From Candidatus Saccharimonadales bacterium (GTDB lineage: Bacteria > Patescibacteriota > Saccharimonadia > Saccharimonadales > JACDBH01), in NCBI GenBank assembly GCA_041752595.1, contig JBGSWE010000004.1, positions 23,057-87,056 on the forward strand: a DNA stretch of 64,000 bases, in the 5' to 3' direction. This document shows positions 22,879 to 47,482 of the stretch, one piece after another (position 1 is the stretch's first letter; every line of letters starts with the position of its first letter). A program made the translations under genes and the position numbers. The notes under the pieces were generated by a model that was not told where the DNA came from, did no database searches, and worked only from the letters and a program-made list of their open reading frames with translations.

Positions 22879-22907
22879 TTGACAAAACTGTTATAAATTG
22901 CTATAAT
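22879..22907 (+). promoter_or_regulatory. Consensus sigma-70 promoter (TTGACA-17-TATAAT)
   Basis: Both hexamers are exact with a 17-nt spacer, located 26 nt upstream of the ATG at 22933. Confidence 0.55.
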
Positions 22908-30248: not shown

Positions 30249-30277
30249 TTGACAATTAGCTAAGCATAAGCTATAAT
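30249..30277 (+). promoter_or_regulatory. Consensus sigma-70 promoter (TTGACA-17-TATAAT), placed for a near-leaderless transcript
   Basis: Both hexamers are exact. The -10 ends 9 nt before the ATG at 30287. Confidence 0.55.
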
Positions 30278-30286
30278 GCTGTTATT

Positions 30287-30736
30287 ATGAACGAAAACAA
30301 ACAAAATAGACCTCGTAGATTTCATCACCAGCCTGGTACCGATCCATTTAAGCACCAGGCCACTCGCCCCGTACAAGAGGCTACTAAAAACGACACTCGT
30401 AGTTTGCGCCGCATTTTATTCGCTGGCGGGGTTGCTGTAACTGCCTTGTTTACTCTTAACGCTATAAAAAGTGGCACTAGCGCTGAAGGTAGTACTCCTC
30501 GACCAACCATTGAAGTAGAAGCAAAAGAAGGTGATTCTTATTGGAGTATGCAAGAAGCCGAAGGTGACAGTGGTCGTGAATTAGGTGAAGTTGTTTTAGA
30601 TGCAATGGATTTACCTCAAAATGACCAAAAAGGCACCGGTGACATTGATGGAATTGGTGATGGTATGGCAGATGAAGTTCATCCCGGCATGATAGTAACC
30701 TTGATTGATGATCCTAGTACTCCATCTCAACCCTAA
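30287..30736 (+). CDS. Hypothetical single-pass membrane protein with an acidic C-terminal region
   Basis: 149 aa with a basic N-terminus and a TM at ILFAGGVAVTALFTLNAI. Confidence 0.45.
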   Translation: MNENKQNRPRRFHHQPGTDPFKHQATRPVQEATKNDTRSLRRILFAGGVAVTALFTLNAIKSGTSAEGSTPRPTIEVEAKEGDSYWSMQEAEGDSGRELGEVVLDAMDLPQNDQKGTGDIDGIGDGMADEVHPGMIVTLIDDPSTPSQP

Positions 30737-42798: not shown

Positions 42799-43090
42799 AA
42801 TTAACCTGTAATAAGTATTATTCTAACAGCTATATTTTTAATTGTCAAACAAATTTCATCACTTGTTTTTCTAATGCCTATTGTAGCACCAAATGGCACA
42901 AAATGCATAATACGTTTATGGTAATTTACCACGTCATATTTTTGCTAGCAGTGTTACGATAGTGGATAACTATATTATTTTCTTACTTTTCGCTGTTTTC
43001 AGCTCTTCAGAACAATCACACAATCGTTGAAGTAAGAAATCTGGAGTAGTATGGTAAGGGGTTTTAGAGGTTCCCTGTGGGGAGGTAGCG

Positions 43091-46162: not shown

Positions 46163-46333
46163 TTATTCGAGCCAGGCTTTGCCGGCTTTGTAGCCGACGT
46201 AAATGCCTAAGATTGGCCCAACAATTGCACCAAGCAAAAAACTCCATAGACCAAAGCCATCATCGAGCATTCCGCAGAGCCAAGTACCCAATAATCCGCC
46301 AATCGTTAAGCAAGTGATCATTAGTAGTCTCAT
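46163..46333 (-). CDS. Possible 56-aa two-helix membrane peptide (below the ORF-track cutoff)
   Basis: My translation reads MRLLMITCLTIGGLLGTWLCGMLDDGFGLWSFLLGAIVGPILGIYVGYKAGKAWLE. Support is hydrophobic periodicity only. Confidence 0.3.
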   Translation of the reverse strand: MRLLMITCLTIGGLLGTWLCGMLDDGFGLWSFLLGAIVGPILGIYVGYKAGKAWLE

Positions 46334-46392: not shown

Positions 46393-46902
46393 CTAAAGAT
46401 GAATTATATACATATAAGTAGGGCTAGTGATTGGACCGGGTACGGCCAATACCAGAATGCCAAGTTCTAAGGCGAACCTAGCGGTGTGTAACGAGCCGCT
46501 ATTTATAGCTGCCTTTGTTATCAGCACTGCTTCAGCTAAGCTTGCAATAATACGATTGCGAGCGACAAAATTAATCTTAAATGGTTCTGTCTGCTCCGGA
46601 TATTCAGTTACCAACAAGCCATGACTACTGGTAATCTGGTGGGCTAACTGAGTATGTGTGCGCGGATAAATTTTGTCCAGACCACTAGGAATAACGGCGA
46701 TAGTTTTGCCACCGGTTTGTACGACGCTTTGGTGGGCGATTGAATCTACCCCCAGCGCCAAACCGCTGACTGTAACTACGCCTTTTCCTGCCAGCTCGCT
46801 GGCGAATTTGGTCGTAACGGCACGGCCGTATGGGCTTACCTTACGGCTGCCAACTATAGCAATCCTCGGCTCTTTAAGAAGTGCATCAAGACTATCGCTA
46901 CT
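46393..46902 (-). pseudogene. dprA: dprA (DNA processing protein A/Smf) remnant, truncated at both ends
   Basis: The open frame SSDSLDALLKEPRIAIVGSRKVSPYGRAVTTKFASELAGKGVVTVSGLALGVDSIAHQ...RNRIIASL...SGSLHTARFALELGILVLAVPGP is the DprA Rossmann core. A TAA at 46903-46905 immediately precedes it and there is no ATG/GTG/TTG before the GSR motif. After PGPITSP the sequence diverges and stops. Confidence 0.6.
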
Positions 46903-46926
46903 TTAAGTAGAGTGATTTAGGGGGTT

Positions 46927-46949
46927 GAGGAAGTCTTAGGACTTCTTTT
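46927..46949 (+). terminator. Terminator-like hairpin upstream of the ncRNA promoter
   Basis: GAGGAAGTC-ttag-GACTTCTTT plus T; one pair is G-U on the + strand. No + strand gene lies upstream, so its role is unclear. Confidence 0.25.
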
Positions 46950-47010
46950 GGTAAATATCGTTTCAGTAAGCGTAATCATGTTGACAAATGGGCGATTAAG
47001 TTAAAAAGTA

Positions 47011-47039
47011 TTGACATAATCCCATAAATTTGCTAAAAT
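47011..47039 (+). promoter_or_regulatory. Near-consensus sigma-70 promoter (TTGACA-17-TAAAAT) with no ORF behind it
   Basis: The -35 is exact, the spacer is 17 nt and the -10 is TAAAAT. Its architecture matches the other promoters in the window. Confidence 0.55.
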
Positions 47040-47045
47040 AGCAAT

Positions 47046-47457
47046 CTGTAATTACCCATGTTGGTATTACGTACCTTATACCCCTATATTAACGTCTTCT
47101 TCACTGAAGACACTGGCATTTATGCCAGCATGTTAGATTGTTTTAGAGCGTGCTGATTAAAGTTGTTACCCTCCACTTTCTCTTAGCGCTTCTAATTTTT
47201 TAGAAAGCGCTCTAAAACAGACTAACCCCTTTAACCCCGCACTCCCACCTCGTTTTTATTGAGGCTAATTGGCGACGTGACGGTTATACCTCGGCAGTGG
47301 GCCGGCTCGAGTAACTTTACGAGATTACTCGACTCGGAGGACTTCAAGGTGGGTTGAAGGGTGTAATTTGGGGCTTAATCTTTATGATTGAGCCTAAATA
47401 GAGACTCTAGCGGTGCCCACCCCCTCTAGAGTCTCTATTTAGTTAAGCTGATTTTCG
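47046..47457 (+). ncRNA. Candidate ~410-nt structured non-coding RNA of unknown family
   Basis: At least eight hairpins or helices lie between the promoter and a perfect 17-bp terminal stem (47394-47410 / 47426-47442). Wobble pairs favour the + strand. The longest ORF is 32 codons with no SD. Confidence 0.45.
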
Positions 47458-47482
47458 ATACTAAAGAGTTAATAATTTAAAC

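Follow-up and report, generated by a model that had tools for sequence, protein, structure and literature searches.

The window considered here is a stretch of 64,000 nucleotides (nt) from a Candidatus Saccharimonadales bacterium (contig JBGSWE010000004.1, positions 23,057 to 87,056), and our subject is an RNA gene on its + strand at 47040-47446, which lies in a 577-bp gap between a remnant of dprA and the gene pth. In almost all of the related loci compared, the gene order is topA, dprA (divergent, ~140 nt from the start of the RNA), the RNA, pth (convergent) and der. The gene is preceded by a sigma-70-type promoter (47011-47039, +) and closes with an intrinsic terminator (47394-47446, +); its folding z-score is -9.3, and a profile hidden Markov model (HMM) of the family recognised it with E = 7e-64 as the single match in the window. 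The initial annotation, made from the letters alone, had proposed an independently transcribed, highly structured non-coding RNA running on the + strand from the promoter to a long hairpin, and this is borne out by ~130 syntenic homologues, by conservation of promoter and terminator, and by covariation. We consider it very nearly certain that 47040-47446 (+) is a real and conserved gene for an RNA, and it represents a new, previously undescribed family. The longest open reading frame (ORF) of the gap has 38 codons (TTG start, - strand) and not 32 as first counted.

The promoter is present as originally read, with a -35 box TTGACA at 47011-47016, a 17-nt spacer, a TG at 47031-47032 and a -10 box TAAAAT at 47034-47039, and from its sequence it is predicted to be of the sigma-70 type (TTGACA/TATAAT, 16-18 nt apart), with a scanner score of 11/12 against the consensus and a TG-extended -10. 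Exact TTGACA-N17-TAnAAT promoters occur four times in the window against 0.11 expected from shuffles. The remaining three (22879-22907, +; 30249-30277, +; 42820-42848, -) are located ~10-55 nt ahead of protein ORFs, and only 9 nt separate the promoter at 30249 from an ATG at 30287, so that a leaderless mRNA, or one nearly so, is suggested. Downstream of the promoter at 47011-47039 there are no same-strand ORFs except antisense shadows within pth. Among the 97 copies of the family with enough upstream sequence, 96 have a promoter scoring at least 10/12, the TTGACA -35 box and the 17-nt spacer being kept in 95 each and the TG in 96. The -10 region lies within a perfect inverted repeat, TTGCTA-AAA-TAGCAA (47030-47045), which takes in the extended -10 together with the first bases to be transcribed and whose halves are kept in the family consensus (ttTGcTA.aAT.gCaa); this could be the operator of a dimeric regulator, or could merely reflect the summed constraints on promoter and initial transcript.

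At the other end, the terminator combines a GC-containing stem with a U-tract on the transcribed strand, and it was overlooked by a simple terminator scanner because its loop has 15 nt. The U-tract is weak in the window (UAUUUAGUU) and clear in relatives, a U-rich tract (at least 5 U in 7 nt) following the terminal stem in 98% of the homologues. From these signals we infer a transcript of ~400 nt that would start at ~47045-47047 and end in the U-tract at ~47440-47446; the length of the RNA in the family is 338-512 nt, with a median of 411 nt.

Scanning of GTDB species genomes with the Pth protein of the window gave 80 loci, of which the best nine are from Saccharibacteria (Pth 47-54% identical) and the remaining 71 from other phyla. 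The homologues anticipated in relatives were found when the 577-bp gap was used as nhmmer query against these loci: all nine Saccharibacteria loci were matched and none of the others, and each match lies downstream of pth on the strand opposite to it. In a ten-way alignment there are blocks identical in all sequences, though the flanking protein is only ~50% identical. Further copies came from a metagenome scan for the motif TTGAAGGG, a gap of 35-65 nt and then GGTGCCCACCCCCTC, with at least 120 matches listed, so that the collected set comprises 130 copies (the metagenome share being at least 120), 114 of them distinct and full-length and 101 below 85% mutual identity. A profile HMM built from the collected copies matched 131/131 Saccharibacteria-type loci and 0/71 of the other Pth loci, and the key loops are unchanged in more than 130 Saccharibacteria sequences. 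By sequence comparison the family is found throughout the sampled Saccharibacteria and is, as far as sampled, restricted to them, and the RNA is probably an undescribed core part of these cells.

The minimum free energy (MFE) of 47040-47460 is -154.4 kcal/mol, with z-scores of -9.3 on the + strand and -7.8 on the - strand and no shuffle as low. An RNAalifold consensus of 58 diverse copies (alignment A2) contains 48 pairs, 26 of them with compensatory double changes. The pairing model used for the family is a block-wise consensus of 91 pairs in 16 helices, in which 91.3% of the pairs are standard, versus 79.4% after shuffling, and the compensatory substitutions expected of a real structure are seen in relatives, 56/91 pairs being changed on both sides. 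The covariation score of this model is 0.376 versus 0.166 for shuffled alignments (0/500 reach it), and it is 0.06-0.10 when the partners are slid by 1-3 columns. A segment-wise realignment of 84 copies agrees with the block-wise structure. Covariation gives good support to P1, the core of P3, several helices of the central domain, the penultimate hairpin and the terminator stem, and is uninformative for P2 (UCUAAC/GUUAGA), the core of P5 and the G-C and U-A pairs at the core of the P4 stem AAGU/ACUU, since these are invariant. A mini-hairpin UCGCU/GGGUG proposed by RNAalifold (A2 columns 493-496 with 503-506) was rejected as a probable alignment artefact; by eye, UUCGCU pairs with an AGCGAG upstream (with AGUGAG/UUCACU variants). 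It is thus strongly supported that the RNA folds into a multi-helix structure consisting of P1, a conserved single strand, a P3 three-way junction with P4, the long-range P5 with a variable central domain, a penultimate hairpin and the terminator.

The same alignment bears on the strand. Paired columns hold 605 G-U/U-G cells versus 84 A-C/C-A cells, a ratio somewhat inflated because the structure was derived on the + strand; as A-C cells correspond to G-U on the opposite strand, the excess favours the + strand, in agreement with what the G-U positions in the window had first suggested. Promoter and U-tract are conserved on the + strand only. The variable segments between the conserved blocks have lengths evenly spread over the three residues modulo 3, which excludes a conserved reading frame.

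All local hairpins that had been listed for the window are present (47047-47071, 47094-47111, 47113-47128, 47302-47337, 47342-47359 and 47372-47394). The 5' tail (~47045-47046, with a conserved AGCAAnnU) leads into the P1 hairpin (47047-47071), which is part of the MFE structure and agrees with the folds of relatives, and the main stem of which (A2 columns 9-13 with 42-46) has compensatory changes in 5/5 pairs. The single-stranded J1/2 follows (47071-47087), with the form G(C/U)ACCUUAUA plus a C-run, in the window GUACCUUAUACCCCUAU; this block is conserved in the 114 sequences and in A2 and has a mean unpaired probability of 0.52. In the P2 region (47088-47137), AUUAAC at 47088-47093 (family consensus UCUAAC) can pair with GUUAGA at 47132-47137, and there are no compensatory changes; the insert between the two strands consists in the window of the hairpins 47094-47111 and 47113-47128, and its length is highly variable in the family. 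At least three members of a clade without dprA at the locus (L002, L003 and L005) have a J1/2 without C-run and the shortest P2, which shows parts of the RNA that are dispensable.

The long-range helix P3 pairs GUUAGAUUGUUUUAGAGCG (47132-47150) with CGCUCUAAAACAGACUAAC (47208-47226) over 19 nt with 89% complementarity, encloses P4 and P4b, and has in its core GUUUUAGAGC/GCUCUAAAAC compensatory changes in 8/10 pairs. The 11-bp long-range helix of the initial annotation is therefore real, although it extends further than the 11 bp given. Within P3, the P4 hairpin (47152-47187) has a basal stem GCUGA/UUAGC and an apical stem AAGU/ACUU (47160-47163 with 47175-47178), in which the pair A190-U208 has changes on both sides. 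The apical stem closes the invariant 11-nt loop UGUUACCCUCC (47164-47174), which carries an anti-Shine-Dalgarno-like CCUCC; GUUGUUACCCUCC is invariant in the 58 diverse sequences, and the loop has an unpaired probability of 0.82 +/- 0.03 over the 84 sequences. P4b (47185-47211, AGCGCUUCUAA/UUAGAAAGCGCU) is a variable hairpin, replaced in relatives by a hairpin of other sequence and length (S3 length 26-152 nt), and has up to 4 nt in common with P3 at the three-way junction. These 4 nt had been taken as a sign of alternative folds, and they amount to the ordinary ambiguity of such a junction.

The second long-range helix, P5, pairs CCCUUUAA(CCC) at 47227-47237 with (GGG)UUGAAGGG at 47351-47361 and encloses the central domain. 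Its core CCCUUUAA/UUGAAGGG is invariant, including a fixed U-G pair, and a flanking swap from AAC/GUU to AAG/CUU is seen by eye in the alignments A1 and A2, for which the formal count credits 1/58 (pair 308-508). The central domain (47238-47347) exists in two architectures, type W in 8/84 copies (the window and seven others) and type M in 76/84, the latter with 14/32 pairs compensatory; the window thus has the minority form. The sequence GGUGGG (47348-47353) is near-invariant (127/130 copies) and forms in the window the loop of a local alternative hairpin at 47342-47359. The penultimate hairpin (47372-47394) has compensatory changes in 8/8 pairs. The terminal hairpin, first described as 47394-47410 with 47426-47442, is present and was recovered by an inverted-repeat search as 47394-47413 with 47423-47442 (20 nt, 95%); its stem (17-20 bp), followed by UUUAGUU, has 15/20 pairs compensatory, and the loop-closing pairs covary. 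The 15-nt terminator loop CGGUGCCCACCCCCU (47411-47425) is invariant in the nine genomes, which were found independently of the loop.

A more convincing case of competing pairings concerns GUUAGA (47132-47137), which has two conserved partners, the 5' strand of P2 at 47088-47093 and a 3' ACUAAC at 47221-47226. Pairing with the 5' UCUAAC is complete (6/6) in 74/84 copies, and pairing with the 3' ACUAAC reaches 5/6 in 82/84. The 5' strand is absent in three loci (L008, L083 and L184) and its match is lost in a fourth (L144), in which the pairing with the 3' copy is doubly compensated (AAUAG/CUAUU). Since the 5' copy is sometimes missing and the 3' pairing is kept or compensated, the 3' pairing looks constitutive and the 5' copy a frequent competitor, and the competition of two partners is a real candidate for alternative folding. 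In addition, GGUGGG is exactly complementary to CCCACC in the terminator loop, and GYACC of J1/2 to GGUGC in the same loop. Both are possible, candidate pseudoknots whose two sides are invariant, so that covariation is uninformative.

Both invariant loops contain C-rich runs, CCUCC and CCCCCUC, complementary to sequences of the Shine-Dalgarno (SD) type. The anti-SD motif CCUCCU is retained in bacteria of the candidate phyla radiation other than some Parcubacteria (PMC9297842). Taken together, this makes the C-rich-loop mechanism of Staphylococcus aureus RNAIII (RF00503) and of RsaE/RoxS (RF01820) the closest working analogy. By this analogy the RNA would be made as a stable primary transcript and act in trans, its covarying helices forming a rigid scaffold that displays the invariant, predicted-unpaired C-rich elements, namely the P4 loop (similar to the 16S anti-SD CCUCC) and the terminator loop. 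The displayed loops would pair with G-rich, SD-like sequences of target mRNAs, as in RNAIII or RsaE/RoxS, and competition of the duplicated CUAAC strands for one GUUAG could allow the 5' domain to switch between two folds. A new family of ~400-nt RNA genes acting through such a trans mechanism is, as a whole, the explanation that we modestly favour, and its specific part, that pairing of C-rich loops to G-rich RNA is how the RNA works, is put forward tentatively.

The C-rich apical loops of RNAIII, including that of its terminator hairpin, pair with the SD regions of target mRNAs. The Saccharibacteria RNA resembles RNAIII and RsaE/RoxS in being a stand-alone unit with its own promoter and terminator, and in having many hairpins and unpaired (here predicted) C-rich apical loops, also in the terminator; its size is in addition similar to that of RNAIII (~400-500 nt). 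It differs from them in showing no sequence or covariance-model similarity, in encoding no peptide, and in having the long-range helices P3 and P5 and possible pseudoknots. Instead of 4-nt CCCC/UCCC motifs it has invariant loops of 11 and 15 nt, its conservation extends over a much deeper lineage, and target pairing is here only predicted.

Several points weigh against this explanation. When the 64-kb window was searched for targets complementary to either invariant loop, the loci themselves were the only matches. The 15 invariant nt of the terminator loop exceed the usual seed for SD pairing, and class-wide conservation is unusual for base-pairing small RNAs. The metagenome copies were picked via a terminator-loop motif, and the invariance of this loop is therefore an independent observation only in the nine genome loci and the window. 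Transcription of the gene and both of its ends are deduced from sequence signals. Finally, the pseudoknot complementarity suggests that the terminator loop may serve inside the molecule, as part of a compact tertiary structure, which would be a better fit for a protein-binding or catalytic RNA.

Such an RNA is the alternative that survives best, the long invariant stretches, the possible internal pseudoknots and the retention throughout the lineage agreeing with it nearly as well as with loop pairing, and we judge it possible though somewhat unlikely. The transcript would serve a protein complex as RNA subunit or decoy, or would be a self-contained RNA of an 'ornate' or catalytic kind, in either case a housekeeping RNA of the lineage like 6S, Ms1, OLE or ROOL, with the invariant nucleotides making up a tertiary core and a protein-binding surface and not antisense seeds. 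Its presence in every Saccharibacteria locus examined, kept in reduced genomes of ~1 Mb, is in line with this, as are the near-consensus promoter, the many long-range helices with their complex junctions, and invariant blocks longer than typical seeds; GGUGGG:CCCACC and GYACC:GGUGC suggest pseudoknots that would bury the terminator loop, but their invariant sides give no support by covariation. On the other hand, no conserved gene for an RNA-binding protein is linked to the RNA (the neighbours are topA, dprA, pth and der), and the existence of two central-domain architectures means that a large part of the molecule is free of tight structural constraint.

Like OLE, ROOL, GOLLD and the raiA motif RNA, the present RNA came to light through comparative genomics, is lineage-restricted, measures several hundred nt and has an intricate structure that covaries while its junctions and loops are invariant. 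It differs in matching no Rfam model, in being restricted to Saccharibacteria as sampled, and in its fixed site between dprA and pth, as opposed to association with phages, mobile elements or partner genes (oapA-C). With the RNA polymerase-binding 6S and Ms1 RNAs it shares a strong promoter, a non-coding, stable and structured transcript (here predicted) and apparent universality in the lineage, whereas it has no rod with a central bubble, has unpaired ends and matches no 6S model. It is tempting to go one step further and to see in it an essential housekeeping RNA of the whole lineage, which within Saccharibacteria would rank with 6S, tmRNA and RNase P RNA as a new ribozyme or ribonucleoprotein core, but we hold this to be distinctly unlikely. 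If true, the invariant loops and pseudoknots would be its active or protein-binding centre, and the RNA would possibly compensate for functions lost from the ~1-Mb genomes of these epibionts, such as functions in translation or ribosome biology; the P4 loop is similar to the anti-SD end of 16S rRNA.

The neighbourhood of the 3' end bears on a further alternative, which we regard as improbable, that the RNA is a cis-acting leader whose fold controls read-through of its own terminator into a downstream gene on the same strand. The competing CUAAC/GUUAG pairings do resemble a switch, and where RNA and pth are at least 250 nt apart, as in 51 relatives, the interval is occupied in nearly all cases by an ORF of 90-540 amino acids (aa) that runs in the direction of the RNA and starts 0-230 nt after the terminator (L001, L006, L009, L111, L129, L150, L163 and others). 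However, these ORFs are mutually unrelated, their sequences resembling a Ser/Thr kinase, a methyltransferase or a lipoprotein, which favours a variable gene slot over a dedicated role in cis regulation. Moreover, 76 loci have a recognisable pth ORF downstream, and in 25 of these, as in the window, the terminator abuts the convergent pth or lies less than 250 nt from it; for the 25 loci pth or its antisense shadow is the closest long ORF, and the same-strand ORFs downstream in the window lie only within pth. The large 'families' of same-strand downstream ORFs are likewise antisense shadows, of pth and der. For the terminator stem, which at 17-20 bp is long, no conserved anti-terminator partner was seen.

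The ORFs in the slot may use read-through from the promoter of the RNA, or the site may be an insertion hotspot. Unrelated accessory genes just 3' of the RNA recall the gene slots anchored by tRNA and tmRNA genes, and one copy lies by genes for RecT, an FtsK-like protein and a methylase; as no integrase, attachment repeats or tRNA-like 3' end were identified, this is an analogy only. The copy in question is of type W (L201, 7940-8370 of IMGVR_UViG_3300049064_000004, filed as viral) and adjoins genes for RecT, an FtsK/PD-(D/E)XK fusion and two DNA methyltransferases, with no pth or dprA nearby. Either a mobile element may have integrated next to the RNA gene, or the contig may be misclassified, and this single match in a viral collection was not taken as evidence for a viral nature of the RNA.

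The claim that the locus belongs to no known RNA family held up against Rfam 15 and ARAGORN. Rfam 15 was run at gathering score on the whole window and the nine genome loci, at E<=10 on the region and at E<=5 on 20 short homologue loci. Across all of these runs only chance matches of microRNA type to hairpins came up: the region gave nothing at gathering score and at E<=10 only chance matches of microRNA type on the long hairpin, no consistent match appeared among the 20 homologues, and ARAGORN found neither tRNA nor tmRNA in the region. RNase P RNA (RF00010/RF00011) was rejected, there being no model match in 21 sequences and no CR-I to CR-V/P4 motifs (GGAAAGUCC...ACAGAA..CGGCUUA) in the consensus; the ends do not pair into a P1, the 5' end being a short tail with a local hairpin and the 3' end a terminator hairpin. 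Transfer-messenger RNA (tmRNA; RF00023, also permuted) was discarded with no ARAGORN or Rfam match, no T-arm or CCA end and no tag ORF, the signal recognition particle (SRP) RNA (RF00169/RF01854) with no Rfam match, and 6S RNA (RF00013 and relatives) with no Rfam match and a multibranched fold of 338-512 nt instead of a rod of ~180-200 nt with a central bubble. The T-box leader (RF00230) gave no model match on either strand; the terminator loop read on the minus strand (GGGGGUGGGCACCGC) presumably resembles a T-box motif, but the T-box reading was rejected, promoter and U-tract being on the + strand and the downstream gene of the minus strand being dprA. OLE, ROOL, GOLLD, raiA and HEARO gave no covariance-model match. 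GUUUUAGAGC resembles a Cas9 repeat, and a tracrRNA or omega-RNA was dropped with no nuclease gene present and the housekeeping synteny fixed. An apparent likeness of GGUGGG/CCCACC+CCC to the acceptor end of tRNA-His was not relied on.

A highly divergent RNase P RNA, tmRNA, 6S or SRP RNA that the models overlooked is accordingly very improbable. The length of ~400 nt, the strong promoter and the lineage-wide presence do resemble rnpB or ssrA, but RNase P RNA, tmRNA, 6S and SRP RNA all require paired 5' and 3' ends and the ends of this RNA are unpaired, and to the absence of Rfam matches (E<=10 for the window, none consistent at E<=5 in 20 homologues) and of an ARAGORN tmRNA is added that of any P4/CR-I-like sequence, T-arm, CCA end, tag ORF or central-bubble rod. 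In the searchable literature no description of this RNA was found. A 2022 preprint on the TM7x transcriptome states that the organism has no validated small RNAs (doi 10.1101/2022.03.25.485537), and a 2024 perspective on the unexplored biology of Saccharibacteria/Patescibacteria mentions none (PMC11665869).

On the other side of the RNA, dprA is decayed in the window, as was first noted. The intact DprA of a relative (L006) has 286 aa, of which tblastn finds only residues 33-190 (46417-46890, 59% identity); the remnant (46393-46995, -) carries two stops in frame upstream, its first in-frame start codon is at 46761, and of the C-terminal 96 residues there is no trace. By these sequence features dprA is a pseudogene in the window, whereas relatives keep the intact gene. 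The initial annotation had further placed the locus where the 5' part of dprA should be, with an implied insertion. This does not hold: relatives with the intact 286-aa DprA have the RNA at the same ~140 nt, divergent, so that it is neither an insertion nor a replacement of the dprA 5' end, which would occupy ~90 nt at the left of the 577-bp gap (46907-46995, -), outside the RNA. A translated search for decayed coding sequence agrees, the dprA match ending at 46890 with nothing within the RNA. One clade (L002, L003, L005, L007, L139, L151, L156 and L196) lacks dprA at the locus and has topA ~350 nt ahead of the RNA. The RNA, intact beside the pseudogene and kept in loci without dprA, is thus independent of its neighbouring genes.

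That there is no RNA gene at all, but decayed coding sequence, a mobile insertion or a functional minus strand (pth 3' untranslated region or dprA leader), is barely credible: the minus strand folds well too (z = -7.8), dprA is decayed in the window and one copy adjoins mobile-element-like genes, but the synteny holds with intact dprA too, the dprA remnant falls outside the RNA, indel lengths do not follow multiples of three, only the + strand conserves promoter and U-tract, G-U cells outnumber A-C cells 605 to 84, and the window holds a single copy of the element.

Between topA and the dprA remnant there is in addition a hydrophobic ORF of 56 aa (46163-46333, -), which has no Pfam match and has counterparts 37-52% identical at the same place in seven relatives (L002, L003, L117, L128, L165, L166 and L183); judged from this conservation it probably encodes a genuine small membrane protein.

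Patescibacteria, among them the tiny and parasitic Saccharibacteria, account for a sizeable part of bacterial diversity; they are epibionts with minimal genomes. A non-coding gene of ~400 nt likely has a central role when such a lineage retains it throughout, with a strong promoter and key loops that do not vary, and it adds a new member to the short list of large, complex bacterial RNAs. The RNA may serve as a marker of the Saccharibacteria lineage, and genetic work has in it a concrete target, the cultivable strains being open to natural transformation and transposon sequencing being available for them.

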